A stretch of DNA of 49,639 nt from Candidatus Thalassarchaeaceae archaeon (GTDB lineage Archaea; Thermoplasmatota; Poseidoniia; MGIII; CG-Epi1), in NCBI GenBank assembly GCA_963578705.1, contig CAUZDT010000003.1, forward strand, positions 1 to 49,639, read 5' to 3'. The notes beneath the pieces were generated by a model. It ran no database searches and was not told where the DNA came from. It saw only the letters and a list, made by a program, of their open reading frames with translations. The translations under genes and the position numbers were made by a program. The stretch's first letter is position 1. Each line of letters begins with the position of its first letter. Positions 1,224 to 46,600 of this stretch are shown in pieces.

Positions 1224-1310
1224 TGGCGCGAGGAGGGGGATTTGAACCCCCGTGGGACAAGCCCATCGGATTAGCAATCCGACGCAATGGCCAGGCTATG
1301 CGATCCTCGC
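1224..1310 (-). tRNA. tRNA-Ser(GCT)
   Basis: Reverse complement GCGAGGA...TCCTCGC-G-CCA; anticodon arm TCGGA-TTGCTAA-TCCGA; long variable arm; T loop TTCAAAT. Confidence 0.97.
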
Positions 1311-4498: not shown

Positions 4499-4574
4499 GG
4501 GCCCGTAGCCTAGCTGGAAAGGCGCCGGCCTTCTAAGCCGGAGACCCGGGGTTCGAATCCCCGCGGGCCCGCCA
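4499..4574 (+). tRNA. tRNA-Arg(TCT)
   Basis: GGGCCCG...CGGGCCC-G-CCA; anticodon arm CCGGC-CTTCTAA-GCCGG; T loop TTCGAAT. Confidence 0.97.
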
Positions 4575-5748: not shown

Positions 5749-6554
5749 GTGGGCGAATCCCCTTTCCGTGACGACCTGTTCGACGGTGCGCGCGTGCTCG
5801 TGACGGGCGGCGGCACCGGGATGGGGTTGGCGTTCGCCACCGCCTTCGTGGCGCACGGCGCGCAGGTCGCCATCGCGTCGCGCAACGACGAGCATCTCGC
5901 GGCGGGCGCCACCGCCATCGCCGCAGCGACGGGCACCGAAGCGCTGACGCACGTAGTCGACGTCCGTGACGGCGAGAGCGTGGCGGCGCTCGCCGCCACG
6001 CTCGAATCAGAATGGGGTGCGCTCGATATACTGGTCAACAACGCCGCCGGAAATTTCTTCGCGCCGGTGGCCGAGATGAGCGAAAACGCCTGGCGCGCGG
6101 TCGTCGACATCGTGCTCGACGGCACCTTCCGCGTTTCGCGCGCGTGCCACCCGCTGCTCTGCAAGGGGCGCGACGCCAGCGTCGTGAACGTCGTCGCTAA
6201 CTACGCCTGGGGCGCCGCTTCCTTCGTCGCGCACTCCGGCGCCGCCAAGGCGGGGGTGCTGAACCTGTCGCGGTCGCTGGCGCTCGAGTGGGCTCCGGGC
6301 ATCCGCGTAAACGCGCTCTGCCCTGGCGTCGTGCCGACCGAAGGCGCGAAAGCCAACCTGTTCCCGGCGCCCGAAATGGAGCAGATGATTACCGATACTA
6401 TCCCGAAGGGGCGGCTCGCGACCGCCGACGAGATGGCGCTGCAGGTGCTCTGGCTCGCTGCTAGCGACTATATCACGGGCGAATGCCTCGTCGCTGACGG
6501 GGGGCAGTGGCTGGCGGGCAACCCGTTCTACACGCTCGGGAAGCAGCTCGCCGA

Positions 6555-16383: not shown

Positions 16384-16526
16384 CGTCGGTGCAGCCCTGC
16401 CCCACCTATATCGCTTAGCCTGTTTTCGGGCCGGGCGAACACTTTATATGAACGGGGCAACGTGACAGGAACCCTTCAGTGGGTATCCTGCCCGCTGAGA
16501 CAAGGACTCAACCCAAGGTGTGTTAT

Positions 16527-22500: not shown

Positions 22501-23783
22501 ATTCGGATGGCGAGTATGTGCCCTACTACATCCACCTCGACAGTAAGAAGGTGAGTCTGAACTACAACCCGGTTGCGGGCAACCCGTATTCCTTCGTCTT
22601 CCAGGCTAAGGGACCGCTGGGCAGCGCCTCGATTGGCGGTATCAAGGTGGTCCGGACGCTCGACACTGGTTTCTTCGTTGAGAAGAGTGACCAGGCCAAG
22701 CGTACCTACACCATCTACCCCTCACTGGGCGTTGAGTTCACCTATTACGCCAAGAACATCGGGACGCTGGACAACGTGCTGCAGATAACCCCCAACCTGG
22801 ACACGGGCGACATTGGTTACAGCGCTGACGACTGGTCCATCTACCGCACAGTGACTGACGAAGCTGGTGCACCGGTGGCGACCACTAACGACGGCGAGAC
22901 TACCAACATCCCGATTCCGGCCAACGGGCAGGTGACCATCACCATCGCCATCTGGGCGCCTGAGTTCGACTGGACGGCCAACGAGCCGCGGGGCGGTCGC
23001 AGCCTGACCTTCAAGATGAACGTGTATGACGCCGGTTCCGACTGTGCTGCCGGTTCGCAGTGCAACACTTGGAACATGCCTTACTCGGCGTTCCTGGACA
23101 TCCCCAAGCCGGAGTTCGCACTGACAGACATCTCGGTAGATCGGATTGCGGTATTGGAGGGTGATAACGACGGCGTCACCGTCCGGGTTATGGCCGAGAA
23201 CCACGGTAACTATGCCCCCAACGCGTTCATCGCGTTCTACGTCCTTAACCAGGGCGAGGGGAGTATACCCTATGAGTTCCCGGACGGCATCAAGCGGGTG
23301 ACGCGCATCGGTGCGACTGAAATCCCGCGTATGGCACCCAAGGCCGTGCTCGAGAAACAGAAGGAGGTAGACTCCTCGGTCCGTACCTACTACGAGGCAG
23401 AGATAACCTGGATTGACCCATTCATCCCCGAAGCGGGAGCCAGCAAGGGTTCAGGCGGCGAATATTGGGACGTAACCGTGTTCGCCATCATTAACCCGGT
23501 GGTAATGGAGACTCAGGACATCGAGGCCTACCCCGACTACACCGACAAGGCCGCTTGCGAAGACGCAGGCTACTTCTGGCACCTCAAGGAGAGCCGCTGC
23601 GGCAAGCACAAGCACGAGGAAGCAGGTGACCTGCAGGACGACAACGTCATTAGCGGCACCGTATCGATCGTGCGTGCCTCCGACACCACCCCCTCTTTCG
23701 CACTTGGTCTGCTCGGGCTGAGCTTGGCGGCGCTACTGGCGTCGCTCGGTGTAGCCCTGCGCCGTCGCGAAGAAGACGCATAA
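16527..23783 (+). CDS. Giant Tyr-rich secreted surface protein (~2,420 aa): NIDO-like N-terminus, beta-propeller-like region, repeated jelly-roll modules, cupredoxin domain, C-terminal anchor
   Basis: Signal peptide ending AAA; repeated (S)xDxGxxW...Y...W...F-DL...VxxRW/F modules; H-C-H-M cupredoxin motif; tail PSF-hydrophobic-RRR; ATG 16527 follows AGGTG. Confidence 0.85.
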   Translation: MQETATESSLAWTARLVAFAVAVIMVTSTFVMLAPYAAAKTGGPDAGSYNFTDSTESDGKVSYSWIDITSSGTAAGITSDTISNSFDLGFSVTFYGEDSDEFWIGGDNGWLSLDKPSQSYAWIAYQMPYGTIAGTMLSAYWHDWIICNFGGNYGKVPDAEIYYEVQGTAPDRQLVVTFYKLSDWYECYYGTDYTDTTTFQIIVKENGDVIYQYEDAVFEQYYSFAPQRDVTVGIQGDGSTGLTYDYGVAGGSGGSDDSYNNMAILFYPPPPPDNELRLDNSYVPSPLSLAEQNTFTTEVNNRGANTQTNVDINAKVFSTKVNTVLDATFDDDEDGFVSSSSLGPDLWTRDVQDSQGSHASNYNYGDDHFNNGDTSDRSMSSGRKEGSIGGMFDDSARVHHDGTNLYVADRLHGQVWKFDSDNVATVLLTGLVNPLDVTADEDGNVYVLGRCSGTSYLWCTNTWVKKFGSDGTLLASGGSDIKYGMALTYYDGQVFALQVYYTAATTKVVILDASDLTTDGSFTYGNGKSRYYYWEDLDVDDDTGDIWMIWRHYSQSTLRKYTRGTDGSYSATTYTDCQFPGPGYLYYSSSIDVFDGAVYTSGYYYSSFYGGLKKISTTSCTWTTVMSQYGGGWNTYVGSIAMTSTHVYVSSLYTYREYYIYNANDKIGYYDLSDGELVATFGPSDAMLSHLISPSFDTSTAVGVTLKFKVSYWFFYRYEGAIFEASTDGGTTWTYVEEDKFIKGGYVTGINGNIYDYMNTPTDIVAKQAWTYYRTGGGYDPSCRQACGWQDVEVDLKEYAGYPDVKVRWTVGYNQYWYSYAWLYYNSYFRLDDVQVDLIDIDETFVDETKIVDSISYKEVVPVSFTPFQPSDNGLGAGDTVGVSITIINDFGDEDLSNNRYVTFREVKFVVFKDNFNDCDASDWLFGVDYSGGSEWSAASVDSKSPACSLDSGRKMDQVYPGDPWASTGNINLNLPVEAELTFEHSYYFYYTYDGLVVEISEDAGDSWSPIAPVDGYGNAIYNYAYYQNPLRGQQGFTYYGSAGSSFSYSPSPAPWEKETFDLTPYVGQDDVRLRWHLGWSSVSFGYPTYGYSNAFYRLDDIYITGLVFNDNVAVSAIDIVDPIPVDSTPTMATTALNAGINSQISGKTKVKMTIGTEAVTNVFAEDHESYTSTSNPWSASYGQESGSPYGSNYPWGDNPGFVFPASDASSGNNAWGPDPASGEFEMYYGGGEGMLVSDSYDLTSAPSDAMMVMTHRYNWDLYSGYPTYNGGLVEISTDDGDSWNTIAPVGGYPGTMYNYAGYGNPLYGKAGFVGCSSCPGDGAAEADEDEWIDSTFDMADYLEDTVKFRFHFGIYHYKWPGEGEHWYIDDLNIVGTDLADIVYQDIIEVSGAGTGGAFASGESKDMEWTYHFITPGQYKLRVEIWIDGYVDENGDSATDEFPSDNMRETSRETMFTVAYTGAEAAKECNDCLYNGIGDLYEDGWSTALVQGKAEWTTQASTVKAGNYAWWGGDDIYGTAYEGDDTWLRSPSLDLEQAVSAKMVFQHQYAYYAYVSTYSSTFYDGGNVATSTTGSGSGSWSPISMSSGDLYGGVVWDYPYYGNPVRGQMSFVSSSPGWVESQARLDAYTGTGMDDVTVGFHMGGTFVNWDPTWFVDEVGIYALGFDVKQTSSNMPWKLELGESTTITTSFKNVGLGDLGPDGSVTGTDVYAYVTDMDGNTVWSDAAYSISNLAMAAETGVFSITFPGLSTAGMYTVGVKLTEPGTSNTLKDLFKSNNGASHMLLVGTEQDLGTPMLTGGENWAAATDEPAAVSDGALSVSWDETDVITQDTAVSILGQANGFSPGYVEVVLGTTITWSNNDAISHTVTDVDGDFDSGTITTGGSFSLTFNEVGTFSYYCSLHQQMTGQVVVVAAAVATEQARTNYMPVWSDDSYLVFWANYDMSAGNEITVSAQRQGFSFESSETITLWGPNGFNIYDGREHEKVGNSLTGNSDGEYVPYYIHLDSKKVSLNYNPVAGNPYSFVFQAKGPLGSASIGGIKVVRTLDTGFFVEKSDQAKRTYTIYPSLGVEFTYYAKNIGTLDNVLQITPNLDTGDIGYSADDWSIYRTVTDEAGAPVATTNDGETTNIPIPANGQVTITIAIWAPEFDWTANEPRGGRSLTFKMNVYDAGSDCAAGSQCNTWNMPYSAFLDIPKPEFALTDISVDRIAVLEGDNDGVTVRVMAENHGNYAPNAFIAFYVLNQGEGSIPYEFPDGIKRVTRIGATEIPRMAPKAVLEKQKEVDSSVRTYYEAEITWIDPFIPEAGASKGSGGEYWDVTVFAIINPVVMETQDIEAYPDYTDKAACEDAGYFWHLKESRCGKHKHEEAGDLQDDNVISGTVSIVRASDTTPSFALGLLGLSLAALLASLGVALRRREEDA

Positions 23784-31497: not shown

Positions 31498-32385
31498 ATG
31501 GCGCAGAAGAAGAGGCAGCAGCGCAAGCCGAAGACCGAGATACAACGTTCGGAAGAGCAGTTCCAGCGTTTTGTCGACCGCCGTAACGAATACAACAGTG
31601 AGGCGCGCATGCTACGCGACGAGCGCGACGCTATCCATGACCAGCGCGGAAAGGTGATGCAGAAAATCCTGGCCATGCGCGACGAGATGAAGGCGCATTC
31701 GCAGGCGAAGCAGCGTAGCATGCAGTCACGCAATAAGTTGCGTGACCAGGCACGCAAGCTGATTGCCGCCAAGCAGGCGCGGCGCAAGGATGGCAAGGGC
31801 GACAAGGGGCTGCACGGTACGGTCGAGGCGCTGATGTCCGAAATCATGGCGTCCGAGCGGCGGCTCGAGACGACCGAGATGACGATTGCCAAGGAGCGTG
31901 CGCTGCTCGAGCGGATTTCCATCCTGCGTCGCAGCCTGGGCGAGCAGCAGTCGTCGCTTGAGGAGCAGGAGCACCTGCACGCCGAGGTGGGCGAGCTGGA
32001 CCAGTCGATTGACGAGCGGTTCAGCGAGGCAGACCAGCACCACCTGGAAGTGGTGCGGCTGGCGAAGCTCAATTCGAAGCTTTACGACAAGATGACCGAG
32101 CTGATGAAGGAGGCGGCGCACCTCTCTGGCGAATCAGACAAGAAGCATCAGGTGTTCGTTGACGTCCGCAAGCGCGCCGACCACCAGCACGAGCGCGCGA
32201 TGGAGATGCTTGACCAGCTGCGGACCCACCGGAATGTGGCGCGCGAGGAACAGCAGGCGCGCTGGAAGGTGGTGCGCGACCGCCGCAAGGAGGTCAAGGA
32301 GGCGCTCTACGATGACAAGAAACTGGCCGAGGCGGCCGACGACGCCATCAGGGAACTGATGTTGGGCGGCAAGATTTCGCTCTGA
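31498..32385 (+). CDS. Archaeal coiled-coil protein (COG1340-like)
   Basis: Heptad-rich, charged, helix-type composition; RRNEYNSEA...ERDAIH, AD..H repeats and C-terminal GKISL typical of this family. Confidence 0.7.
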   Translation: MAQKKRQQRKPKTEIQRSEEQFQRFVDRRNEYNSEARMLRDERDAIHDQRGKVMQKILAMRDEMKAHSQAKQRSMQSRNKLRDQARKLIAAKQARRKDGKGDKGLHGTVEALMSEIMASERRLETTEMTIAKERALLERISILRRSLGEQQSSLEEQEHLHAEVGELDQSIDERFSEADQHHLEVVRLAKLNSKLYDKMTELMKEAAHLSGESDKKHQVFVDVRKRADHQHERAMEMLDQLRTHRNVAREEQQARWKVVRDRRKEVKEALYDDKKLAEAADDAIRELMLGGKISL

Positions 32386-33110
32386 TGGACGCCATCGTCC
32401 TGGCGGGCGGCTTCGCGCGCCGCATGGGGGAGCTGGTGCGCCACATTCCAAAGCAGTTGCTCCCAGTCGCCGGCGAGCCGCTACTGGCGCACGTACTGCG
32501 CTCGCTCGAGGCAGTTGCGCCCGACCGCGTGCTGCTGGCGGTCAACGCCGCTTTTGCCAGCCAATTTGACGTGTTCATCGCCAGCTACGACGGCCCGCTG
32601 ACGCTGGAATTGGCGGTCGAGCAGGCGCGCGCCGAAGGCGAGAAGCCCGGCGCCCTCGGCGCGCTGGGGCAGCTGGTGGCGGAGCATCGCCTGGCGGGGC
32701 CGCTATTCATCGTCGGCGGCGACAACCTGTTCGATTTCGACCTCGCCCGCATGGCCGCGCTGAACCAACGCACGGGCGACGACGTTATCGGGCTCTACGA
32801 CGTTGGCGATACCGGGCTGGCGCAGCTCTACGGCATCGCGGCGCTCGAGGATGGCATTATCGTCGATTTCGTCGAGAAACCGGCGGAGCCGCGCTCGACG
32901 CTGGCGGCGACCGCTTGCTGGTTGCTCTCTCCCGGCGGGGTGCGGGCGCTCGCCGCCTACCTTGCGGCAGGCGGCGAGCGCGACGCGCTGGGCCATTTCC
33001 TGCCGTGGCGCATCGGTCGCGCGACGGTGCGCGGCATCGCGTATAGTGGGACCTGGTTCGACATCGGCGACCCCGAATCGTACGCGGTGGCGTGCGCCCA
33101 TTTCGGCTGA
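32385..33110 (+). CDS. Sugar-phosphate nucleotidyltransferase (NTP_transferase family)
   Basis: AIVLAGGFARR, PKQLLPVAG, GGDNLF, FVEKP, WFDIG; TGATG coupling to upstream gene. Confidence 0.9.
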   Translation: MDAIVLAGGFARRMGELVRHIPKQLLPVAGEPLLAHVLRSLEAVAPDRVLLAVNAAFASQFDVFIASYDGPLTLELAVEQARAEGEKPGALGALGQLVAEHRLAGPLFIVGGDNLFDFDLARMAALNQRTGDDVIGLYDVGDTGLAQLYGIAALEDGIIVDFVEKPAEPRSTLAATACWLLSPGGVRALAAYLAAGGERDALGHFLPWRIGRATVRGIAYSGTWFDIGDPESYAVACAHFG

Positions 33111-33143: not shown

Positions 33144-34685
33144 TTGATGATTCCGGCCAGCGAAGTGCTCGCTATCGGGTCGCTGCTGCTGCTCGCGGTG
33201 GGTTACCGGCTCTCAAGCGGCCCGCACCGCATGGCGGGCCGCAGACTGCCGGCTGCCGCAGGCCCTCGGCTCTGCATGGTTGGCTGGCTGGCGTTGGGGG
33301 GCTTCTGGTGGAGCGAGGTCGAGCACTACATCCTGATTCGCGACCCGGTCAACGCGCTCTTTTGTGCCATGGCGCTGCCGTTCTTCGGCTACCTGGCGTA
33401 CCACCATTGGCTCACCATCGAGTGGCGCCGCGAATACCCGGCGCTGCGCTGGCTGGTGGCGATGACCGTCGTCGCTGGCGGTATCTACTTCCTGGTCGAG
33501 CGGGTGCCGTTTCTCGCCGGCTGGCTCATCCAGGTCGTGGCGGAGCAGTCGGTCTGGCTGCTTGACGTGGCGGGCGTCCCGACCACGCTCGGGCCGCTCG
33601 ACTACGGTGAAGGGTCGCGCTGGTACCGCCTCGGCTCGGCGCACCAGGAAGTGAGTGTCCCCGTCGAGGCGGCGTGGCGCGACCCGATGTCGCCCGCAGT
33701 CAGCATCGTGCTGGCGTGCACTGCGCTGCAGAGCATGATAATATTCGTCGGCGGCGTGCTCTGCACCAGCGCGCCGCGCCAGCGCCGCGTCTACGCCTTC
33801 CTGGCGACGGTGCCGACCATCTACTTGCTCAACCTGATTCGCAACGCGGTGGTCATCTGGCTCACCTACGAGCACGTCTGGGGTGATGACACCTTTTACT
33901 ACGCGCACGCCTGGATTGGCAAGGGCGGCAGCCTCGTTGCGCTGGTCGCGCTGGCGTACATAGTCTTCCACTACCTGCCGGAGATGCAGGACGCTATCCT
34001 GGGAGTGATGGACCTGCCGTGGCGCGAACCGCCGGCGGGGATGCGCACGCCGCCTTTCGCCGCCGGGACGCCCGGCTGGATCACCATCGCCTTCGTGACA
34101 GGGCTGGTACTGGCGCCGTTCGGTGCCGCCGCTGGCACCCCGTCGGAGCTGCCGCTCGACGCCGCGGCCTGGGCGGCTGCAGCGCTGCTGGCGCTGGGCG
34201 CCGGGCTGCTCTGGTTCCACCGCGACCCGCCGCGCCCCGTCGGCGTCGGCGTCGTCAGCCCCGCCGACGGCACGGTGCTCTCGGTCGACGAGCACGACGA
34301 CCACGTGCGGCTCTCGATTTTCATGTCACCCTTCAACGTGCACGTCAACCGCGCGCCGATTGCCGGCCGCGTTACGGCGCAGCAGCGCACCGGGGCGGGC
34401 TTCAGTCCCGCCTACAGCGCCGCCGCCGACGGCAACCTGCAGGTGCGCACCGAGCTCGAAACGGCCGTTGGACCGGTGGCGGTGACGCAAGTGGCGGGCG
34501 CGCTAGCGCGGCGCATCACCAGCTATCTCTCCGAAGGGCAGCAACTGACGAAGGGCGAGCGGATTGGCATAATCCACCTCGGCTCGCGCGTTGACCTCGA
34601 GCTGCCGCTGGGAGCCGAGATGATCGTGCAGTCGGGGCAGAAGCTGTGGGCGGGGCAGACGGTGGCTCGCCTGACGGGGTCGTGA
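33144..34685 (+). CDS. artA-pssD: Archaeosortase A fused to phosphatidylserine/archaetidylserine decarboxylase proenzyme
   Basis: N part: multi-TM with IVLACTALQS (Cys, 33717), LNLIRN (Arg, 33840), YAHAWI (His, 33906). C part: FHRDPPR, VSPADG, IFMSPFNVHVNRAP, QVAGALARRI, GERIG..LGSRVD (pyruvoyl Ser, 34584). No stop between the parts. Confidence 0.9.
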   Translation: MMIPASEVLAIGSLLLLAVGYRLSSGPHRMAGRRLPAAAGPRLCMVGWLALGGFWWSEVEHYILIRDPVNALFCAMALPFFGYLAYHHWLTIEWRREYPALRWLVAMTVVAGGIYFLVERVPFLAGWLIQVVAEQSVWLLDVAGVPTTLGPLDYGEGSRWYRLGSAHQEVSVPVEAAWRDPMSPAVSIVLACTALQSMIIFVGGVLCTSAPRQRRVYAFLATVPTIYLLNLIRNAVVIWLTYEHVWGDDTFYYAHAWIGKGGSLVALVALAYIVFHYLPEMQDAILGVMDLPWREPPAGMRTPPFAAGTPGWITIAFVTGLVLAPFGAAAGTPSELPLDAAAWAAAALLALGAGLLWFHRDPPRPVGVGVVSPADGTVLSVDEHDDHVRLSIFMSPFNVHVNRAPIAGRVTAQQRTGAGFSPAYSAAADGNLQVRTELETAVGPVAVTQVAGALARRITSYLSEGQQLTKGERIGIIHLGSRVDLELPLGAEMIVQSGQKLWAGQTVARLTGS

Positions 34686-35458
34686 TGCTGCGCCAGCTCT
34701 TCCGGCCGCTGTTCAAGATTTCAGTCGGCGACCTCGCGACGCTCGCCAACGCCGCCTGTGGGCTGCTGGCGATTACCTACTTCCTCGACGGGACGCGAGA
34801 TGCAATCCTGATCGGGATGCTGCTGCTCGTCGTCGGGGCGTTTTTCGACAGCATCGACGGGATGCTGGTTCGCAAATACGGGTCGAGCCACCGCTTCGGG
34901 CCGCTGCTCGACTCGCTGGCCGATGTCATTAGCTTCTGCCTCGCACCGGCGCTGCTGGTCTACACGCTCTGGTATGACCTCGAGCGCGGGCCGGCGCTCT
35001 CGCTCGCGGGCGTGGACCTGCCGAACCTGCTGGCGCTCGCGGGCGCGCTGCTGGTGGGGCTGCTGGGAGTGCTGCGGCTGGCGCGCTTCACCCACGACCG
35101 CGAGGAGCAGTTGCACCACTTCTCGGGGATGCCGACGCCAGCGATGCTGGTGCTGGTGCTAATTGTCTGCCTGCGCTGGTCGTCGCTCTCGGGTGACGCG
35201 GCAACGTGGCCGCCCGCGCTGCTCGGGCTGGCAGCCTTCCTGATGGTCACGACGCTGCCGTTCCTGAAGGCGCGCGGTCAGGTCATGCTGCCGGTCTTCG
35301 GTGCGGTGCTGCTGCTGCAGTTCGCCATCCTGGCGGCGTGGCAGGACCACGCGGCGTGGCTCCCGCTCTGGACCGCGGCGGCGCTGCTCGACGGTGGCTA
35401 CATCTTCGGTAGCCCGCTCTGGGTGCTGCGCAACGACCCCGAATGGCGTCGTGGTTAG
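34685..35458 (+). CDS. pssA: CDP-archaeol/diacylglycerol--serine O-phosphatidyltransferase (archaetidylserine synthase)
   Basis: TLANAACG, DSIDGMLVR...FGPLLDSLADVISFCLAPA, LRLARF, FSGMPTPA; TGATG overlap with upstream gene. Confidence 0.9.
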   Translation: MLRQLFRPLFKISVGDLATLANAACGLLAITYFLDGTRDAILIGMLLLVVGAFFDSIDGMLVRKYGSSHRFGPLLDSLADVISFCLAPALLVYTLWYDLERGPALSLAGVDLPNLLALAGALLVGLLGVLRLARFTHDREEQLHHFSGMPTPAMLVLVLIVCLRWSSLSGDAATWPPALLGLAAFLMVTTLPFLKARGQVMLPVFGAVLLLQFAILAAWQDHAAWLPLWTAAALLDGGYIFGSPLWVLRNDPEWRRG

Positions 35459-35464
35459 CCGCGG

Positions 35465-38400
35465 TTAGCGGCGACGCCGCCGCAAGGCGACGCCACCGAG
35501 CAGCATGAGCGCGGCCAGCAGCGAGGGCGCCGGCAGTCCGCCCCCCCCGTCATCGGTCGGCGGCGGGGCGTCCGACTCACTCACGGTCACGGTCACCGTC
35601 AGTTGTTGCGCAGTTCCCGGCTCGCCAACGACCTCCGCCGTCAGCGTGAAGGCGTAGCTGCCACCCGCGGCCAGTTTATGGTTGTTAATCACCAGTGCGC
35701 CCCAGTCCATCTGCCCTCCGGGCGCCAGCTGCAGCGGGTAGTCGGCCGTGTCGGGGTCGAGTCGCACATACCAGCGGTTGCCGCCGCCGTCGGTGAAGCC
35801 TACCTGCCAGTCGGTCGACCCCGACGGGAGCGTCAGCTCCAGACCGATTTCGGCGTCGCCGTTGCCGTTGTTGGTAACGCGGAAACCGTAGGCGCCGGTC
35901 TGGATTTCGCCCTGCTCAACCGCGGCCTCCAGCGCCCGCTGTGAGAGGCAGTCGCCTGACGGCATCGTGAAGCAGAGCTCGAGTGAGTGCGTCTCGGTAA
36001 CCGGCACCTCGACCTCGAGCGTCAGCGTCCGCCGCTGGTCGGTCTGGCCGTCGTCGGCGGTGGCGATGACGCCCAGCCGGTATTCGCCCAGCGCAGCGCC
36101 AGTCGGGACCGCGACGGTCACGGCGATAGTGGTTTCCTGCTCGGGGTCGAGCGTGACCTCGGCCGGCGCGGCCGACGCCCAGTCGGCGGCCGCGTCACCA
36201 AAGCTGATGGTGAACGTATCGGCCGAGTTACCGCGGTTCTCGAGCGAGAAGTTGAAGCTGGCACTTTCGCCCGGCCCGACCGACACGCGCGTCGGCTCGT
36301 CGGTCACGAGCCGGAATTGCAGTTCGTGCTGCCGTCCGACGACGTCGATGGTCAGCGCCTGCTCGTCGCTGGCGCTGTCGTCGCCCTGCGAGGTGGCGCG
36401 CACGCCTAGGTCGTAGCGGTCGTCGAGCACGTCGTCGGGCACCGCGAGGCTGCCGTCAATCTCGATGGATTCACCCGCCGCGAGGCTCACCTGCGAGGCG
36501 GCGAAGCTGACCCATTCGGGGTGGTCGCCGACCGCTTCGAGGTTGAAGGTATCGCTGGCGTCACCGTCGTTGGTCACGGTCACGCTGAAGTCAGCTGATT
36601 TTCCCGCCACCAGTTCAATGTATTGCGGCTCCAGCTCGAGGCTGACGCCATACTGGGTGGGGTCGTCGGTGACGACCGCAGTCAGTTCCTGCGTGACGGT
36701 GATGTCGCCCGCGCGGACCTCGAGCACCAGCTGGTATTCGCCATTTTCCGCATTTTCGGGTAGCGCGACGTCGACATCGACGTCGCGCTCCGCGCCCGTC
36801 TTGAGCGTAGCGGCGTTAATATGCAGCTCGCCCCAGTCGGCTGCCGCGCCCGAGAGTGAGAGAGTCAGCTTGTCGCGGCCGGTTGCGTCGTTGCGCAGCG
36901 TCACCTTGAAAGTGAGTGTCTGCCCCGGCTCGCCTTCCTTGCTGTCGCTGACCGTCGAGACCGCCGGGGCGTGGAGCATGACTGCCTCAAAATCCGCCTC
37001 GCGCCGGTCGTTCTTCGTATTCTCGTCGCCCGCCAGCTCGGTCTCGACGCCGATGACGTATTCGCCGGTCGGCCCGCCATCCTCCCAGCTCCACGTTAGC
37101 TCGACCTCGTCGCCCGCGGCGAGGAAGCCAACCGTTTGCGTGTCACTCCAGATGACGTCGCCGTCCAGCAGCGCCTGCGCGCGGACGGTGAAGCTGGACT
37201 GGTCCTCGGAGCCGTAGTTGCGGATAGTGCTGCTGAACTCGACCGTCGTGTTCTCGTCGCCCTCCGACGGGACGTCCAACAGCCGCGTGCCGACGTCGTG
37301 CGCCGCCGCGGCGGTGAAGAGCCAGCCGAGCACCCGCTCGACGATATCGGAGCGCTCGCGTTCGTCGTCGAGGAAAGCGAAGGTAAAGGGGCTCAGCACC
37401 AGCTGGTAGTCGCCTTCGTAGCGCAGCGTCAGGTTGTAGCCCGACGACGCGCCGAAAACCCAGTTGTCGCCGCCCGACTCGAGGTCATCGCTGAAGAGGA
37501 CCCCACTCGCGTCCTGCAACTCGACATCGTCAACGTACCATCCCTCGTATTGGCTGGCACTCGCATCACTTCCAAAGCGGAACTTGAATGTTACCTCCTC
37601 ATTTGCGTACTCGCTAAGACTGAACGAGGTAGATACCCAGCCGTCCGAGCTGCCAGTGTAGCCTGGTTCGTTATCCAGACCAATTACCGAGTCATCTGGA
37701 TACTCCTCGGTCGGGTTGATGACCTCCCAAGTCTCGCCTCTATCAGTGGAGATCTGCACATTGCCTCCGTCGTAGCCGTTCTCGGTCGAATACCAGTTCT
37801 GGAAGCTGAGCTGCCCGCTCTCGCCCAGTTCGTAGGACTCGCGCGTCAGCAATACCTCGTCCCAGTTATCATCATACTCGCCGGTGTCCTTGTCACCGTC
37901 ACCGGCCCAGAGGGCATGTGTCGGGCTGCTCGCCTCGCGTTCCGGGTCACCAGTGGCGCTCGAGTTGTCGGAGATGTGCCACCAGCTCCCTGCGTCGGCG
38001 TAGATACCACCGGTTGCGATTGAACGCGGAATAACCCAGTCGGAGTAGGAGCTGGAGTAGATGGTGCGGTCGGAGCTGCTGAATTCCGCCCCGTCGAATA
38101 TATCGTCGTCGCTGACGCCAATCAGCGGGTCGGGCGTCTCGCGGTCGTTGTCGATGCGCGCGACCATCAGGTAATCGTATTCGAAGTCGCCCGGGCCGCG
38201 GTTGCCGTCGCTGCTGTTGAGTGCGGTGAGGTAGTTCGAACCGAGCAGCCAGAGGCCGCGGTCGCCAGCGTCTAGGTAGCCCGCGACGGTGTCGCGCCAC
38301 GCCTCAAGGTCCCGCTGGTGGTGCTCGCCCTGCGTCCAGATCACGATGTCATACTGCGTTAGCAGCTCGACCGCCGGGTACGGAGCCAGCTCGCCATAGT

Positions 38401-41400
38401 CGCCGGTTGAGCTGTCGTAGGGGAGCGTGTGTACGTCGTAGCCCCGCGCCTCGCCCTCGCCGAAGTAGTCCTGCAGTGCCAGCTTGAGACGTTGGTCAAT
38501 TTCATCGGTCTGGTAGTAGTGGTTGTAGCCGTTGTTATGCCCGAAGTTGGCGTCGACCAGCAACACGCTGTCGCCCTCCGCGCCCTCGCGGTAGTCGGCG
38601 GTGCCAGTTATCTCCTCCGAGTCGCGAGCTGCGGAATCGTCTTGGCTGGTGACACGGACGGTGAAGTCGCGGCTGGCGCCGGTCGGCTCCTGTGTTGGGG
38701 CGATGACCGTGACCGTGAAGTCGGTCGAGCCGCCCGCCGCGATGTAGATGACCTCGTTGAGCGGAATCGCATACCAGCCGTCGCCGCTGCCGGCAGCGGC
38801 GACGTCGTAGTAGCCGCCCTCGTCGCCCTCGTTGGTGGCGGTGAAGTTGAAGAAGGTCGCTTCGCCCGAGAGGACATCCTTGACCGCCTCCTCGACCGCT
38901 AGCGCGACCGCCCAGGCGGATTCACGAATGTCGATGACCTGCTCCTCGCCGTCGTTCCCGGGCCGCTCGTCGTCGTCGAGCAGGCTCTGCGCACGAATGG
39001 TGTAGCTGCCGTTGTCGCCCCCTTGCCAGGTCCAGTCGAGCGTCGTGTTCTCGTCCGAGTCAAGCTGCGCGATGGTGCGGGTCTGGTTGTAGACTTCGTT
39101 GCCGTCGCTGTCGCGCGTGACCGTCGCGCGCACGTCGATATTCGTCTGGTCGTTGGCGCCGAAGTTGAAGATATCTGCGCTGAAGTCGACCGCCTCGCCC
39201 GGCCCCGCCTCGTCGGGCGCGTCGATATCGCGCACGCCAACATCGTCCTGCAACTGTGGTAGGCTGAAGACGGTGAAATCGTCGATGTAGAGCCCCTCCA
39301 GCTGCGACCAGGTGTCGGAGGTGAAGCGCAGCCGCAGCGTCACTTCGTCGCTGTAGTCCGAAAGGTCGCTCTCGAGGTAGAGCCAGCCGTCGCTGTCCGC
39401 CTCGTCGTAGTCGCGCGAGTAGTCTCCGTCGTCGTTCGGGCCGCTCTCGAGCAGCTCCCACTTGCCAGAGACGTTGATTTCAAGGTAGTAATCGTCGCCG
39501 GGCCCGTCGACCGCGAACCACGCCAGCAGCGCGACGCCCTTCTCGGAGCCGTCGCCAAGGTCAATCGTCGGCGACTCGAGCGAATCGTTCAGCCCGGCAC
39601 TGTAAGTTCCACTGTCCCGGTCGCCCAGCCACCAGGCGTGGCTGCCGGAGACCGCGCGGCCGTCGTCCAGCGACCATTCGCTGCTCTCGCCCGAGAAGTT
39701 CCAGTTGCCGTCTCCCGATTCGAGGTTGTCGCTGAAGAGGCTGCCGCTGCTGTCGCTAACTTCGACGTCGTCAAGGTACCAGCCTTCGTAGGTGTTGACC
39801 GACACGTCGGTCCCGAAGCGGAAGCGGAAGCGGACGTCCTCGCCCGAGAAGTTGGCGAGGTTGAAGGTCGCCTGCTGCCAGCCGCTCGAGGAGGCGGTGA
39901 AGCCCGGCTCGTTATCGAGGGCGACAATTGCGTCGTCGGGATAGCCGCCTTCGGGGTGGATGACGGTCCACGACTCACCGTCGTCGCTCGTGAGCTGGAC
40001 GTTGCCACCGTCCCAGCTCGTTTCGGTCGAATACCAGTGCTGGATTACCAACTCCCCGTCGCCGCCGAGCGATATCTCGTCGGCGGTGTAGACCGAGTAA
40101 TCCCAGTTGTCGCGATATTCCCCGTTGCCCTTGGTCTCGTCGCCAATCCAGAGCGAGTGGGTCGGACTGTTCGCCTCGCGGTTGGTGTCGGTGCTGTTAT
40201 CGACCAGGTGCCACGCGTTGGAAATGGGGCGGTAATCGCTCCAGCCATTGCGCCCCGACTCGAAGCTGTCGCGGAACTCGATGTCGACCGCGCGCAATTT
40301 CCCCTCAGCTACATCGTCGCTGGCGTCCTCGTCTGCCTGCTCGAGTTCAGCGCGGAAAGTGAAGGTGCCGTATTCATCGGAGGTCCAGTCCCATTCGAGG
40401 GTGGTGTTCTCGCCCGGCCCCAGCGTCACTTCCTGCGTGTCGCCATCCCAGAGTTCCTCGTCGCCCTCGAAGACCAGCGCGCGTACGTCGCGAGTCAGCG
40501 TTACATCGCCGGGGTTGGTGACCCGCACGGCGAGGGTCCGCTCCTCGTCGGGCTCGCCCAGTCGCGGCGTCACGCGGGCGGCCTCGAGCGCGAGGTTGTG
40601 CAGCACGTAGGTGTCAACCGTGATGCTGCGCTTGTCGTTGCTGCGCTTCTCGTCGGTCGAAATGTATGCCTCTGCTTCGATATCGTAGACGTAGTCCTCG
40701 TCGTCGGGGATGTTCCAGTTGAAAGTCACGGTCGCGGTCGCGCCCGCCGCCAGCGACGCGATGGTCTTCGAATCGGTGTGGTCGTTGGCGCTGGTGTTGC
40801 GACAGTCGATGTCGAGGTTCACCTGCACGTTGGTCTCGTCCTCACCGCCGCGGTTGCGCACGGTGACGTTGATGACCTGCGTCGCGCCGGGCTCGACGGT
40901 AGCACCATCGGACGGCGAGTTGAATTTGTTCAGCGCGACATCATGGTCCAGCTCCTCGAGCAGGTATTCGACGATGCGGTCGGCCAAGTCGCCCCGGTCG
41001 CCAGCGCTAGCGATGTAGGCGAACTCGAAGGCGAGGAACACCAGCCCGTAATCCTCTTCGGTGCGCAGCGCCGACCAGAGGGTGCCGCTGGTGGTGTTGA
41101 ATATTCCGTAAAAGTCGCTGCGCGGCGCGAGGTCGTCGCCGTAGTCGTAGAAGAGCGTGTCGTTGGTGCCATAGTCCGCCCCGGCGGTGACGGGGTCATC
41201 CTCGACGCCTACGACCGGGTTGGCGGTGCCGTTGTCGTGGTCAACGTAGCCCACGCCGAGGTAGTCGTATTCCCAGGTGCCTTCGGAACGCGAGCCGGTA
41301 GCACTGTTGAGGTCCCAGAGGATGTCATGTCCCGTAACCCAGGCCGCACCCCCGTCGTCGAGGTATTCGCCCAGGGCGTCCTGGTCGTTGGCCGTAAAGG

Positions 41401-42007
41401 TAGTGGAGAGGTCTGCCCCGACAAACCAGACCACGAGGCCGTAGTTGGCGAGTGTGTCGGCGTCGGGACCGTCGCTGCCGCTGTCGACCCGCAGCAGGTC
41501 GTAGGCGATATCGAGCGTATCGAGCGCGTCGGTGTAGTAGCCGTCCACGTCGGTCCGCGTGCCGCCGTTGTTGTCGCCGCCATCGTCGTCAATCACGACA
41601 ATCGACGGATATGCAACCGTGATGGATTCGGTGCGCTGGTTGTTGTTCTCGTTGGATTCCTGCACGTTGTCTTCTTCGTCGACGATAACGGTGATATTGT
41701 GGGTGCCGCCAACCGCGTCCCACTCGGCGCTCGCGTCAGCCGACTGGCCGCCCGGAATCGTAATGGAATCCTGCCCGATGTAGTTGGAATCCCAGTAGAA
41801 GCTGACGTTTGTCGTCACCGACTGTAGCCCGGTCGCGCCGCCGTCGTTGGTCACCTCGGCGCTAATCATGATTTCGTCGCCGCCGGTGGGGGAATCGTTG
41901 CTGAAGCTGATATCATCGACCGTCAGGTCGGGGTCGTTCTCGTCGGCCAGCACGGGTGGCAGCAGCATCAGGAGTGCCAGCAGGAGGGTTACGGGCTTGC
42001 GGGACAT
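35465..42007 (-). CDS. Giant acidic secreted surface protein (~2,180 aa): CARDB/Ig-like repeats, two Rossmann-like domains, jelly-roll modules, C-terminal anchor
   Basis: Signal peptide MSRKPVTLLL...VLA; DLTVDDISFS...ESNENNN CARDB pattern; repeated TNxGxxxD Ig modules; tail GGGGLPAPS-hydrophobic-RRRRR. Confidence 0.88.
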   Translation of the reverse strand: MSRKPVTLLLALLMLLPPVLADENDPDLTVDDISFSNDSPTGGDEIMISAEVTNDGGATGLQSVTTNVSFYWDSNYIGQDSITIPGGQSADASAEWDAVGGTHNITVIVDEEDNVQESNENNNQRTESITVAYPSIVVIDDDGGDNNGGTRTDVDGYYTDALDTLDIAYDLLRVDSGSDGPDADTLANYGLVVWFVGADLSTTFTANDQDALGEYLDDGGAAWVTGHDILWDLNSATGSRSEGTWEYDYLGVGYVDHDNGTANPVVGVEDDPVTAGADYGTNDTLFYDYGDDLAPRSDFYGIFNTTSGTLWSALRTEEDYGLVFLAFEFAYIASAGDRGDLADRIVEYLLEELDHDVALNKFNSPSDGATVEPGATQVINVTVRNRGGEDETNVQVNLDIDCRNTSANDHTDSKTIASLAAGATATVTFNWNIPDDEDYVYDIEAEAYISTDEKRSNDKRSITVDTYVLHNLALEAARVTPRLGEPDEERTLAVRVTNPGDVTLTRDVRALVFEGDEELWDGDTQEVTLGPGENTTLEWDWTSDEYGTFTFRAELEQADEDASDDVAEGKLRAVDIEFRDSFESGRNGWSDYRPISNAWHLVDNSTDTNREANSPTHSLWIGDETKGNGEYRDNWDYSVYTADEISLGGDGELVIQHWYSTETSWDGGNVQLTSDDGESWTVIHPEGGYPDDAIVALDNEPGFTASSSGWQQATFNLANFSGEDVRFRFRFGTDVSVNTYEGWYLDDVEVSDSSGSLFSDNLESGDGNWNFSGESSEWSLDDGRAVSGSHAWWLGDRDSGTYSAGLNDSLESPTIDLGDGSEKGVALLAWFAVDGPGDDYYLEINVSGKWELLESGPNDDGDYSRDYDEADSDGWLYLESDLSDYSDEVTLRLRFTSDTWSQLEGLYIDDFTVFSLPQLQDDVGVRDIDAPDEAGPGEAVDFSADIFNFGANDQTNIDVRATVTRDSDGNEVYNQTRTIAQLDSDENTTLDWTWQGGDNGSYTIRAQSLLDDDERPGNDGEEQVIDIRESAWAVALAVEEAVKDVLSGEATFFNFTATNEGDEGGYYDVAAAGSGDGWYAIPLNEVIYIAAGGSTDFTVTVIAPTQEPTGASRDFTVRVTSQDDSAARDSEEITGTADYREGAEGDSVLLVDANFGHNNGYNHYYQTDEIDQRLKLALQDYFGEGEARGYDVHTLPYDSSTGDYGELAPYPAVELLTQYDIVIWTQGEHHQRDLEAWRDTVAGYLDAGDRGLWLLGSNYLTALNSSDGNRGPGDFEYDYLMVARIDNDRETPDPLIGVSDDDIFDGAEFSSSDRTIYSSSYSDWVIPRSIATGGIYADAGSWWHISDNSSATGDPEREASSPTHALWAGDGDKDTGEYDDNWDEVLLTRESYELGESGQLSFQNWYSTENGYDGGNVQISTDRGETWEVINPTEEYPDDSVIGLDNEPGYTGSSDGWVSTSFSLSEYANEEVTFKFRFGSDASASQYEGWYVDDVELQDASGVLFSDDLESGGDNWVFGASSGYNLTLRYEGDYQLVLSPFTFAFLDDERERSDIVERVLGWLFTAAAAHDVGTRLLDVPSEGDENTTVEFSSTIRNYGSEDQSSFTVRAQALLDGDVIWSDTQTVGFLAAGDEVELTWSWEDGGPTGEYVIGVETELAGDENTKNDRREADFEAVMLHAPAVSTVSDSKEGEPGQTLTFKVTLRNDATGRDKLTLSLSGAAADWGELHINAATLKTGAERDVDVDVALPENAENGEYQLVLEVRAGDITVTQELTAVVTDDPTQYGVSLELEPQYIELVAGKSADFSVTVTNDGDASDTFNLEAVGDHPEWVSFAASQVSLAAGESIEIDGSLAVPDDVLDDRYDLGVRATSQGDDSASDEQALTIDVVGRQHELQFRLVTDEPTRVSVGPGESASFNFSLENRGNSADTFTISFGDAAADWASAAPAEVTLDPEQETTIAVTVAVPTGAALGEYRLGVIATADDGQTDQRRTLTLEVEVPVTETHSLELCFTMPSGDCLSQRALEAAVEQGEIQTGAYGFRVTNNGNGDAEIGLELTLPSGSTDWQVGFTDGGGNRWYVRLDPDTADYPLQLAPGGQMDWGALVINNHKLAAGGSYAFTLTAEVVGEPGTAQQLTVTVTVSESDAPPPTDDGGGGLPAPSLLAALMLLGGVALRRRRR

Positions 42008-42046
42008 GCTTCGGGGTGGGGATTCCCGCACGGTATAAAGCTGCCC

Positions 42047-43613: not shown

Positions 43614-46600
43614 TCAGCGCCGCAGCCTGAGTGTGAAATAGGCGATAGTCAGCAGCAACGTCGCGACCACGAAAGCCATCATCCACGGGAAGTCCTCCGC
43701 CTCTTCCGCGGCCGCCTCGACTGTCAGCGATAGCGGCTTCGCGTTGTTGGTCTCGTCCTGCTCGCTGAAGAGCTCCTCCGGGTCGACCTCGACACGGAAG
43801 CTGTGGATGCCTTCGCTGGCGACCCAGGTCGCCTCGACCATCGACTCGCCTTCGCCGTCGAAGGCGGCGCTGGTCATCTCAAACAGCTCGTCGTCAAGGT
43901 AGAAGCCGACCTGCGGGAATTGCTCGCCCGAGCCGGCGACGGTGTTGGCGACGGTCGCCTGTAGCGTCACCTCGGTCCCGGGCTCGATGTTGTCGGGTGC
44001 CCAGGTCACTTCGCTGATGCTGAAGTCGGGCGGCGGCCGCTCTGTTGGCGTCACTTCCAGCGCGAAATCGAAGCTGACGTCGTCGTAGAGCTCCTGCCCC
44101 TCCCAGAAGAAGCGGACGTTGAAGTTGCGGTAGACGCCGGGAATAACACCATCGTCCGGCGCGATGTCAAGCACCAGCTCGCGGCTCTCGCCCGGCGGTA
44201 CTTCCACGTCAGGCGCCCGGAATATGGCTGTCCAGTTCTCCCCGTCGCCCGTCACCTCGGTCTGGAAGGTTGTGGTGCGGTGGCCGGTCCCGGTGAAGTT
44301 GAAGGTGAAGTTCACAGCCTGCCCGACGGCGGTTGGCGCCGTGAGCCGGTCGACCGTGACATCGGCGCCACGTAGCAGCTGCCGCTCCAGCTTGAGGGTG
44401 GTCGCGCTGCCGTCGTCGGCCAGCGCCAGCGCGATGGCCTCGTCGAGCACGAAGATGCGGTCTGGCGAGCCGTCGAGGACTTCCAGCAGTGCCGTGAGGT
44501 TGTATTCGCCCGGTGGCAGGATGGTTGTGACTACCCCGTCCGCAGGCGCGAGGTGCAGCAGCAGCTCGTCGCCGGCGCGGAAGCGCACGTCATCGAAGTC
44601 CACCAGGCTGCCGTCGTCGCTGGCGACGAAGTGCCATTCGTATTCTACCCCGCGCTCGAGTGACAGGTTGTAGTCGCGCGAGCCGTTGAAGTCCAGCGAT
44701 TCAATTAGCGTGTAGGCGGTGCCGTTGCCGGAGAAGGCGCGCAGCAGGTAGCCGTCCGGTTTGAGGTAAATCAGGAAGTTGCCATTGGCGTCAGTCTCCA
44801 GCGATTCCAGCACCGACTCGCCGGCACCCTGCCGGAGTTCGACCGTCGCGCCCGTCAGCAGCTCGTCGCCGTCCGGGGTCCCGTCGAAGTTGCGGTCGTA
44901 GAAGACGCTGCCCTGGAAGCGCGCCTTCCAAGTCGCGGGGTAGTCGAAGAACTGGTGGCCGTCGCCGGGGCGCAGCCGCAGCGTACGCTCGAGGTAGAAC
45001 TGGTCGCCGCCGCCGTTGAGGTGGTCGTCGACGCTGACGTCGTAGCGTGCCGGGACCATCTCTGGCAGCTCGATGGTGCCGTTGGCGTCGCTGGTCCACG
45101 TTTGCGACCAGCCCCCTTCGCGGCTGAAGGTCGCTTCGACCCCCACCAGCGGCTGCGGTATCCCGTCGGCGTCGCGGTAGGTCAGGTTGAGTGTCAGCGG
45201 CAGTGTTTCGGGAATCATGTCGACGTTGAAGTAGGAGCTGCCGGCAACCTCGACCGGCGCGTTGTAGGGCTGGAATCCCGGCAGGACAATCTCGAGCTGG
45301 TAACTGCCCGGCTGCAGGTCGAACGGTCCGTAGTCGCCGTCGACGCCGTTGCTGCTGGCAATCGCAGTTCCCAGCTCAGAAATGAACATCAGCGTCACGT
45401 CTTCGTCGACCAGTTCGCCGGTCGGCTCCGAAATCAGCGCGCCGTTGATGAAGTGCCCCTGCGCCAGCGCCAGGTCGTGGAGCAGCACTGGCATCGTCAG
45501 GTCGAGCGTCGAAAGGTGACTGTAGTGCGAGCCGGCGTTCGCGCCCTCGAAAGTGACCCAGTATTCGCCCGGCGGGAGCCAGCCGTGGTAGCCGCTGAAG
45601 CGGGTCGAAATCAGCCGCGTCACATCATACGGCGCGCTAGTGCTGGTGAAGAGCACTTTGCCCTCCCTCAGCTCGCCCTGATGGAGCGCGCCGCCCGAGA
45701 CCTGTAGTAGCAGCTCGGTCGCCACCTCGCCCAGCGCGACGGGCGCGCTACCTAGCTCTACAGCGAGCTGGCCGCTGGCGGCGTAGAGTTCCCCCTCCAG
45801 GTCGAGCGTCACCACATAGTAGTAGTCGTGCGGCGGCAGCGTAGCGATGAACTTTCCGTCGGGGCCTGTGCTGAAGTTGAGGTGGTAGCTTTCGGGCCGA
45901 TCGGCGGGGGTGAACGAGATCTGCGCGGATGCCAGTGGTTCGCCGGTGTGGACGACGGTCCCGGTTACCAGAACTGGCGTTCGCAGTAGCTGGAACTGCA
46001 GCTCGCCGGGGTCGAAGTGATCGTAGCGTTCGTCATCGGGCAGCAGCGACTCGTAGCCAGTGAGGTGGATAGCAGGACGGTAGTTCCCGGCGGGCAATGG
46101 CAGCATGGCCCCCATCTCGTCGGTCCAGGCATGGAGCAGGCCGGAAGGTGCCTCGAGCGAGAAGACGCCGCCCACCGGTAGCTCCTCGCCCAGGTGCTCC
46201 TCGGTCAGGATTACGAACAGCTCGTGCCCTACCGAGAGTGGCAAGTCGGCCTCAAGGGTGCCATACTCGAGCTGCATGCGCTTGAGCCCCGCCAGTATTC
46301 CCTCGGCTTCGGCGAAGTAGGCGTAAGCAGTATAGTCTCCCGGTGGCAACAACGCTTCGAAGTCGCCTCGTGGGCCACTCATCAATGTCAGCCGACCGTT
46401 GGCCGAATCCAGCCATACCTCGGCGCCACCGACATCGCGCTCGTTCGACCCCGGCTCGAATACCCCATCCCCATCCAGATCCTCGAAGAGTTTGCCGGTG
46501 ATGGTCCCGGCCGGCTGCATAATTGCCATCAGCTCCTCTGCGCTACCGGGCTCAACGCGCGCCAGCCAGGCCGCGTCCGCGTCAGTGTGCAGTGCGTAGA

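Follow-up and report, generated by a model that had tools for sequence, protein, structure and literature searches.

A natural archaeosortase A-PssD fusion gene overlapping pssA in Candidatus Thalassarchaeaceae

Archaeosortase A (ArtA) and the decarboxylase PssD are encoded by a single gene, which overlaps the gene pssA, in a 49,639-nucleotide stretch of DNA from Candidatus Thalassarchaeaceae archaeon (assembly GCA_963578705.1, contig CAUZDT010000003.1, positions 1 to 49,639); this whole stretch is called the window below. The fused open reading frame (ORF) with both of its domains is real. The reading preferred here, to which a probability of about 0.7 is given, is that the product is a bifunctional membrane protein combining the lipid anchoring of proteins by ArtA with the synthesis of archaetidylethanolamine (AE) by PssD, and that it was derived from an operon and keeps the two enzymes co-localised with fixed stoichiometry. 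The elements of the locus are the following, with the residues of the fusion protein numbered from the ATG at 33147.

33147..34685, forward strand: artA-pssD fusion gene, coding for 512 aa and ending in TGA (34683-34685), with a TTG at 33144, 3 nt before the ATG.
33147..34022, forward strand: archaeosortase A domain, aa 1-292 (TIGR04125, TIGR04178 and AlphaFold2 model).
33717..33719, forward strand: codon of Cys191, putative active-site cysteine of ArtA (IVLACTALQS; invariant column).
33840..33842, forward strand: codon of Arg232 (NxxRN motif; invariant column).
33906..33908, forward strand: codon of His254 (AHAW; invariant column).
34023..34073, forward strand: junction or linker, aa 293-309 (aligned at the junction with the unfused forms of family f2, genus g3 and GW3).
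34074..34217, forward strand: transmembrane hairpin of PssD, aa 310-357, helices 310-327 and 337-357 (AlphaFold2 secondary structure).
34218..34682, forward strand: catalytic beta-domain of phosphatidylserine decarboxylase (PSD) type, aa 358-512 (PF02666, invariant columns and fold match).
34584..34586, forward strand: codon of Ser480, the predicted self-cleaving, pyruvoyl-forming serine (G479/S480; invariant column).
34685..35458, forward strand: pssA, archaetidylserine synthase-like CDP-alcohol phosphatidyltransferase, 257 aa (PF01066, 49.8 bits against a cut-off of 22).
35465..42031, reverse strand: acidic surface protein of 2188 aa, candidate ArtA substrate, convergent to pssA (tail pattern).

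The frame runs without interruption on the forward strand from the TTG to the stop (33144..34685, 513 aa), and the ATG directly after the TTG gives the 512-aa form. The archaeosortase A model TIGR04125 (exosort_PGF_TRM, NCBIfam) matched it with 145.9 bits against a cut-off of 75 over aa 42-291 of the 513-aa reading (140.4 bits in the genome-wide search), and TIGR04178, the exosortase/archaeosortase signature, with 63.6 bits against a cut-off of 23 over aa 186-279. The remainder was matched by PF02666 (115.2 bits against a cut-off of 22, aa 355-508, positions 5-197 of the 198 of the profile), and the NCBIfam phosphatidyl/archaetidylserine decarboxylase models cover aa 336-508, with no overlap with the archaeosortase matches. 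Since these hidden Markov model (HMM) searches gave E-values of 1.5e-42 and 3.9e-33, and since the same frame is found in other genomes of the window's genus (g1) and of a second genus (g2), the ORF cannot be explained as a random frame of high-GC DNA. A first-pass annotation made from the nucleotide letters had proposed an uninterrupted 513-aa ORF with an archaeosortase and a PssD, expected as two separate model matches on one protein, and both proposals were borne out.

Residue conservation has been followed in an alignment (A3) that comprises 64 fused sequences and covers both of the lineages described below. All 64 sequences share Cys191, Arg232, His254 and Lys259 in the ArtA part, and RDP 359-361, SPADG 371-375, VHVNR 398-402 (with His399) and Ser480-Arg-Val in the PssD part; Gly479 occurs in 90% or more of them. 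The motifs named in the first-pass annotation (ACTA, NLIRN, AHAW, NVHVNRAP and LG/SRVD) are thus all present and their key residues invariant. PSD enzymes act through an established pyruvoyl mechanism, in which we take the Gly-Ser pair (G479/S480) to be the self-cleavage site giving the pyruvoyl group and His399 to be the conserved histidine. Cleavage at this site is predicted to release an alpha chain of 33 aa (480-512), the length the annotation had given, and to leave a beta chain of 479 aa that includes the whole ArtA domain. The linker, with D289, P291, R293, P296, P303, G307 and P309 nearly invariant, combines the end of an ArtA juxtamembrane motif (DLPxRxxP) with what was once the N-terminus of PssD (FAxGxPxW). 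In the available passages of PMC7157517, Cys-173 is named as the active-site residue of Haloferax volcanii ArtA, and Cys191 is its putative counterpart.

The stop codon of the fusion gene (TGA, 34683-34685) and the ATG of pssA (34685) share one A (TGATG), as had been stated from the letters. The translation of pssA contains a DxxDGxxxR...GxxxDxxxD stretch, which we take to be the motif of the family. The pssA gene directly follows the fusion in all of the 11 full g1 and g2 loci examined. The description of the locus as a one-locus anchoring module is supported.

The host genome (1.19 Mb in 82 contigs, 93.6% complete) holds one TIGR04125 match and one PF02666 match, both in the fusion ORF. A word-indexed search of 5.8 billion proteins with the fusion gave 185 matches, and the 120 relatives listed among these are all 512-581 aa long, with 55-97% identity and a query coverage of 98-100%; in 119 of the 120, both PF09721 and PF02666 had been precomputed. 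Where their source gives a name, it is 'archaeosortase A' in Poseidoniales, Marine Group III and Thermoplasmatota metagenome-assembled genomes (MAGs), or 'phosphatidylserine decarboxylase' at JGI. One full-length homolog (P0068, 551 aa, 56% identity) is labelled hypothetical protein at NCBI, in a 'Candidatus Marinimicrobia bacterium' MAG; this label is probably a binning error, because all other named homologs are archaeal.

The distribution of the fused frame was analysed in 45 genomes of the window's order, comprising 9 of g1, 32 of g2, 2 of g3 and 2 of g4, which belongs to the family f2. The frame was full and uninterrupted in seven g1 genomes, and the other two contained pieces, two of the three pieces lying at the first bases of a contig. 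In g2, 27 full and uninterrupted frames and 2 partial ones were found, and the 3 genomes with no match are 70-76% complete. The artA and pssD genes are split in both g3 genomes and form an operon with separate frames in both g4 genomes. A second PssD-like piece, 45-46% identical and confined to short frames (179 and 222 aa), accompanies the fusion in two g2 genomes (G017, C2:49729-50091; G047, C112:29-574). It may be a paralogue or a remnant, or it may stem from contamination, which amounts to 5% in G047. The conservation of the fusion and of its synteny with pssA, left by the annotation as a check, was seen in 7/9 and 27/32 genomes and in 11/11 loci.

The junction was also checked in Logan contigs from three studies other than the possible source samples. 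One contig of 1555 nt (X5) is identical to the window over 33557-35111, and contigs X3 and X4, among them a variant that differs at 40 of 401 nt, are gap-free across 33965-34365. Neither indels nor joints were reported for the contigs that cover the junction. The first-pass annotation had asked for support from raw reads at this place, and the support obtained comes from assembled contigs.

The origin of the fused gene was approached by mapping ArtA, PssD and PssA onto the stop-to-stop frames of all fetched loci. In the family f2 of the same order (L015, L016), artA, pssD and pssA are three separate overlapping frames, and in L015 the stop of artA and the start of pssD overlap as ATGA. A cluster of the three separate genes is also found in the loci L025, L026 and L027 of other Thermoplasmatota MAGs, and in G029, which represents another family of the class, artA and pssD lie about 0.9 Mb apart. 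The N-terminus of the f2 PssD, MRPLLARGTPPWITI..., aligns with the fused linker ...FAAGTPGWITI..., which sits about 10 residues past the conserved LPEMQDxILGxxDLPxR motif of ArtA; because of this alignment, the fusion represents the lost artA/pssD boundary of an artA-pssD-pssA operon. The 'Mix_sand' MAG loci L025 and L026 are one stop codon short of a fusion, with artA and pssD in the same frame and one TGA (5388-5390 and 5985-5987, respectively) and a short spacer between them. Read-through or recoding of this in-frame TGA was considered and rejected, as the spacer and a TTG start of pssD follow it. The f2 ArtA proteins (L015 2864-4372, reverse strand; L016 200-1666, forward strand) contain an internal insert (TIGR04125 matches P0123 in two stretches), and their C-terminal tail, about 100 aa of acidic low-complexity sequence, overlaps the start of pssD.

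In g3, a stand-alone artA (308-aa frame) occupies the conserved upstream context, and a pssD-pssA pair is located elsewhere in the genome. The first 30 or so residues of the g3 PssD (L018 1871-2719, G010) match the N-terminus and first ArtA helix of the fused protein (E 3e-8), and the rest shares 60% identity with residues 308-548 of a g2 fusion, which span its linker and PssD. A concatenated ArtA+PssD tree, in which the g3 row is a chimera of one genus (ArtA from G012, PssD from G010), places g3 inside the g2 clade (100/99). On its sequence, the g3 pssD reads as the scar of a gene fission by internal deletion. The simplest reading would be that the fusion is older than g3 and was duplicated, one copy then losing PssD and the other the ArtA core.

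A second fusion of the same partners emerged when 1.84 billion cluster representatives were searched exhaustively with HMMER (4612 matches). The best 150 of these were scanned with domain HMMs built here, and both domains were present in only three: P0121, a fusion of the window's type with 59% identity; P0200, a fragment; and P0125, of 444 aa and with 37% identity to the window fusion, in which TIGR04125 matched aa 13-248 (104.7 bits) and PSD models matched aa 264-443. Three other ArtA homologs (P0136, P0185 and P0205, of 578-604 aa) are extended at the N-terminus by about 300 aa that contain pentapeptide repeats. P0125 alone as query gave no related loci in genome or metagenome contigs; alignment-based scans recovered L022 and L023-L030. 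The relatives of P0125 in L022 and L024 are 447-aa ORFs, about 35% identical to the window's fusion, in two MAGs labelled Thermoplasmata/Thermoplasmatota. These two ORFs directly follow the genes of EF-1alpha and ribosomal protein S10 and have no adjacent pssA. The sole PF02666 match of each of the two genomes (G059, G060) is the fusion, and a pssA-like gene is found on a different contig.

The ArtA tree joins the window-type fusions plus g3 with the f2 operon forms as sister groups (99) and places the second group elsewhere on a long branch. A single clade for all fusions was rejected by the approximately unbiased (AU) test on concatenated ArtA+PssD (19 rows, 543 columns; p 0.00028) and, with g3 added, at p 0.022, these values referring to groups named after the first tree had been seen, to an alignment with long branches and to models without mixtures. 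The trees have no power to separate gains of the fusion from losses. Two fusions and one fission would be the most economical account, an unproven one. The conservation in two genera, the descent from an operon and the separate second fusion strengthen the Rosetta-stone argument for an ArtA-PssD link that had been made from the window. The extension of this argument to an ArtA-PssD-PssA complex did not fare as well, pssA being unlinked in the second lineage.

An AlphaFold2 model computed on A3 (mean pLDDT 86.1, pTM 0.79) gave, for the ArtA part, helices at 4-22, 38-56, 76-93, 98-119, 121-141, 193-205, 211-241 and 246-276, an acidic beta-containing loop at 142-192 and an amphipathic helix at 278-288. 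Transmembrane segments were taken from this secondary structure, a crude Kyte-Doolittle scan having been dropped because it missed helices. The PssD hairpin aligns with the N-terminal transmembrane region of the stand-alone PssD of f2, g3 and GW3. The best match of the beta domain in a PDB fold search was the PSD-like decarboxylase PsiD (8x4q, E 1.4e-3); nothing credible was obtained for the ArtA part in that search, and a PDB sequence search with the fusion gave no matches at E <= 0.01. Loop charges alternate over the 64 sequences, L1, L3, L6 and L8 being rich in Lys/Arg and L2, L5 (the large one), L7 and L9 acidic or uncharged. Because of this charge bias (positive-inside rule) and of the AlphaFold2 helices, the big loop and the helix ends carrying Cys191, Arg232 and His254 are predicted on the outer side of the membrane (the three residues in its outer-leaflet half), with linker and PSD domain on the cytoplasmic side. 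A complex prediction for ArtA (aa 1-292) and PssD (aa 305-512) as separate chains on A3 gave, without control runs, a score of 0.05 against a mark of 0.32 and was counted neither way.

Candidate substrates were searched for in the host genome with the tail pattern [LIVFM]P[AG][PFL]x followed by 12-22 apolar residues and a basic end, in all stop-to-stop frames of at least 80 aa (n = 7725). The pattern matched 22 of the 7725 frames and none when the same tails were shuffled. Motifs among the 22 candidates are PGF, PGP, PAP and PAL, and extracellular-type domains (CARDB, PKD, Big/Ig-like, NEW3 or InhA-like MAM) were found in all seven candidates scanned. One of the 22 is the 2188-aa protein convergent to pssA, which has CARDB, InhA-like MAM and Ig-like domains and a C-terminal tripartite signal, LPAPS-apolar-RRRRR, encoded at about 35468-35536.

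The window contains three giant surface proteins in total (2434, 2188 and 1998 aa). GC content falls to 0.57-0.60, compared with about 0.65, in a single stretch of the window, and this stretch holds the 2434-aa ORF (16479-23783, forward strand). Apart from a weak Copper-bind match, the ORF has almost no Pfam signal. Its C-terminus, ...PSFALGLLGLSLAALLASLGVALRRREEDA, resembles a tripartite tail with additional acidic residues at its end, and the product may be another substrate or a surface protein of recent acquisition. The 1998-aa protein (43614-49610, reverse strand), with CarboxypepD_reg, SdrD_B and CARDB domains, ends in a transmembrane helix followed by RLRR, without a P[GA][FP] motif.

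According to the preferred reading, the ArtA domain would remove a C-terminal signal of the form '[LI]P[GA][FP]x - apolar helix - RRR' from secreted surface proteins, and the acyl-enzyme would be resolved by the amine of AE, leaving the protein anchored to the lipid. PssA, encoded by the overlapping next gene, would supply archaetidylserine, which the PssD domain, after cleaving itself at Gly479/Ser480 into ArtA-PssD-beta (479 aa) and the 33-aa alpha chain, would convert to AE. The fusion would have arisen when an artA-pssD-pssA operon with stop/start overlaps lost its artA/pssD boundary, and the selective benefit would be a fixed 1:1 stoichiometry and the placing of AE synthesis beside the sortase. 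Both enzyme activities, the topology and the selective benefit are predictions, and we infer AE as the nucleophile here by extension of the model of Abdul-Halim et al. 2020, as given in the available passages of PMC7157517. A closed substrate channel, which the first-pass annotation had considered possible, is unlikely: the predicted topology separates the two active sites by the membrane, and the lipid would need to pass through the bilayer; co-localisation with fixed stoichiometry is the likelier benefit.

Several results weigh against this reading and have to be set beside it. The curated NCBIfam cut-offs were not reached by the fusion for the PSD models NF003683 (192.9 bits against 244), NF003685 (163.1 against 183), NF038088, the 'protein sorting system archaetidylserine decarboxylase' (155.1 against 240), and TIGR00164 (135.3 against 230), nor by PssA for its best model NF038087 (94.9 against 240) or for TIGR00473 (91.3 against 107) and NF038086 (68.6 against 200), and for this reason the PssD part and PssA are assigned to their Pfam families and no more narrowly. 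In the host genome, nothing scored above the cut-off of TIGR04126, the curated model of PGF-CTERM (best 19.7 against 24.5 bits), and coverage in the sole metatranscriptome run mapped (X18) is limited to 35382-35600. The proposed topology needs helix 121-141 to be interfacial or re-entrant and not fully membrane-spanning, and with active sites on opposite faces the transbilayer step of AE is unexplained. The fusion is not obligatory, g3 having split it again and kept only the first ArtA helix on pssD. Four of the eight members of the P0125 cluster (P0274-P0277, 92-93% identity) have a 16-residue out-of-frame tail exactly at the ArtA/PssD junction. Back-translation of the peptides indicates that a one-base shift of the reading frame on the same nucleotides would give this tail, and the shift may be either a true polymorphism or a homopolymer error. 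Finally, ArtA alone did not reject a single clade of fusions in the AU test (40/82 rows, LG+G4, p 0.088), and the naming of the groups after the first tree counts on the same side.

A neutral collapse of the operon, in which ATGA-overlapping genes were merged by a small indel and two enzymes were tethered by chance, with co-expression as the only consequence and no implication for physical ArtA-PssD contact in other archaea, is considered unlikely, though several observations fit it: the f2 operon is 1 nt change away from a fusion, artA and pssD of L025 and L026 are in frame and separated by a single TGA and a spacer, fission was tolerated in g3, frameshifted junctions occur in the P0125 cluster and the active sites lie on opposite faces. 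However, a merger by chance does not account well for a frame that is unbroken in relatives as distant as 56-59% identity, being kept by 27 of the 32 g2 genomes and by at least 120 database clusters, for a conserved linker motif, or for the same partners being fused again in a distant lineage without an adjacent pssA. A sequencing error that joined two genes in the MAG, or another artefact of assembly, binning or gene calling, can be dismissed for practical purposes; the assembly is fragmented (82 contigs) and high-GC DNA yields long chance ORFs, such as an antisense one of 363 aa at 33213-34304, but the same frame without internal stop is present in 34 other genomes of the order, and contigs of three other studies run gap-free through the junction, one strain variant differing at 40 of 401 positions.

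The PssD half might mainly serve bulk membrane AE, the ArtA half being irrelevant to it or a mere scaffold for membrane localisation. The fusion being the only PF02666 match in the host genome and in G059 and G060, all AE made by the PssD route would come from it, and the claim that the ethanolamine lipid is made specifically for anchoring is not supported, since with a sole PssD in the genome anchoring and bulk use are indistinguishable. This bulk-lipid explanation is nevertheless highly improbable as a whole, because it leaves the choice of ArtA as partner on two occasions unexplained, and it has to face the invariant catalytic residues of ArtA, the 22 substrate-like tails and, in the available passages of PMC7157517, the block of ArtA processing by pssA and pssD deletions in H. 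volcanii. At the other extreme, the fusion could be a self-contained machine for anchor lipid, in which the only AE of the cell is made at the sortase, crosses the membrane through the ArtA/PssD interface (the fusion acting as an AE scramblase) and mainly anchors about 20 proteins, AE not being a bulk lipid, with a corresponding complex in haloarchaea and methanogens. This proposal is speculative and appears quite doubtful; if it were true, the two fusions would report a physical ArtA-PssD complex that is non-covalent in haloarchaea and methanogens. The bifunctional membrane protein with co-localised enzymes is retained as the preferred reading.

Two genes precede the fusion, and three tRNA genes are present in the window, with no other Rfam matches in it.

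31498-32385, forward strand: DUF7121 gene, upstream of artA (Pfam match).
32385-33110, forward strand: sugar-1-phosphate nucleotidylyltransferase-like gene, directly before artA (Pfam match).
377-450, forward strand: tRNA gene.
1227-1310, reverse strand: tRNA gene.
4499-4571, forward strand: tRNA gene.

The DUF7121 and nucleotidylyltransferase-like genes overlap each other, and the pair is found upstream of artA in all 14 family loci, the split g3 being no exception; it is seen in the window and in L004-L014, L017 and L019. The best NCBIfam matches of the nucleotidylyltransferase-like gene are Arch_glmU and an AglF-like model, both far under their cut-offs, and surface-protein glycosylation or head-group activation is a candidate role for the pair.

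A natural ArtA-PssD fusion made twice and kept over deep divergence constitutes comparative evidence for ArtA-PssD as a selected link, to which PssA is not always joined. It bears on the question left by the 2020 work on H. volcanii, namely whether ArtA depends on the lipid product or on protein contact, the chemistry of the anchor being still a model in the available passages of PMC7157517. As one polypeptide, the fusion could be expressed, solved structurally and used to reconstitute cleavage and lipidation in vitro. Archaeosortase-type anchoring with a broadened PGF/PGP/PAP signal would reach the abundant uncultured marine Thermoplasmatota, where some 20 large adhesin-like proteins in each 1.2-Mb genome would rely on the fusion, and the g3 scar gene would provide a clear case of fission by duplication and complementary deletion.

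No description of a natural ArtA-PssD fusion, of its double origin or of the fission scar was found in full-text literature searches or in the available passages of PMC7157517, PMC9385802, PMC6098224 and PMC8305020. The remark of the first-pass annotation that it knew of no described fusion stands to that extent, but the sequences themselves have for years been public as 'archaeosortase A' or 'phosphatidylserine decarboxylase'. What is new is the description of the covalent architecture; the ArtA/PssA/PssD system, the gene cluster and the sequences named after one domain were known.

The closest known system is that of H. volcanii, in which, according to the available passages of PMC7157517, ArtA-dependent cleavage and lipidation require HvPssA and HvPssD, AE is proposed to resolve the ArtA Cys thioester (Abdul-Halim et al. 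2020), the dependence of ArtA through lipid product or protein contact is left open and a C-terminal msfGFP tag on ArtA is tolerated. The ArtA, PssA and PssD families and the tripartite PGF-type C-terminal signals of the substrates (candidate ones here) are the same in both systems, as far as those passages go, whereas here ArtA and PssD form one polypeptide, pssA overlaps its gene and the signal motif varies (PGF, PGP, PAP, PAL) and remains under the TIGR04126 cut-off. The linkage of artA and pssA was first noted by Haft et al. 2012, as cited in the same passages, which also describe an artA-pssD-pssA synteny in Methanosarcina with genes of 834, 744 and 627 bp. This gene order is that of the window and of the operons L015, L016 and L025-L027; the Methanosarcina genes are separate, whereas the artA/pssD boundary is gone here. 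Rhombosortase, which acts on GlyGly-CTERM proteins, is a non-homologous sorting enzyme of a different protease family, found in bacteria, and its reaction involves a glycerophosphoethanolamine-containing moiety; this analogy is behind the AE-nucleophile model in the available passages of PMC7157517.

PssD is also fused to an N-terminal PmtA/OlsG-like lipid N-methyltransferase domain in P0229, P0239 and P0264 (439-448 aa). In these proteins, judging by the family names (PmtA-type), PssD is likewise joined to a consumer of its ethanolamine lipid; unlike here, the partner would be soluble or peripheral, on the cytoplasmic side as PssD is, and without a role in protein sorting. The eukaryotic glycosylphosphatidylinositol (GPI) transamidase carries out a Cys-protease-type transamidation of a C-terminal signal onto the ethanolamine-phosphate amine of a lipid anchor. 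It is unrelated to ArtA in sequence and has several subunits, and its anchor lipid is provided by separate enzymes, whereas in the window's fusion the sortase and the predicted producer of the anchor lipid share one polypeptide.

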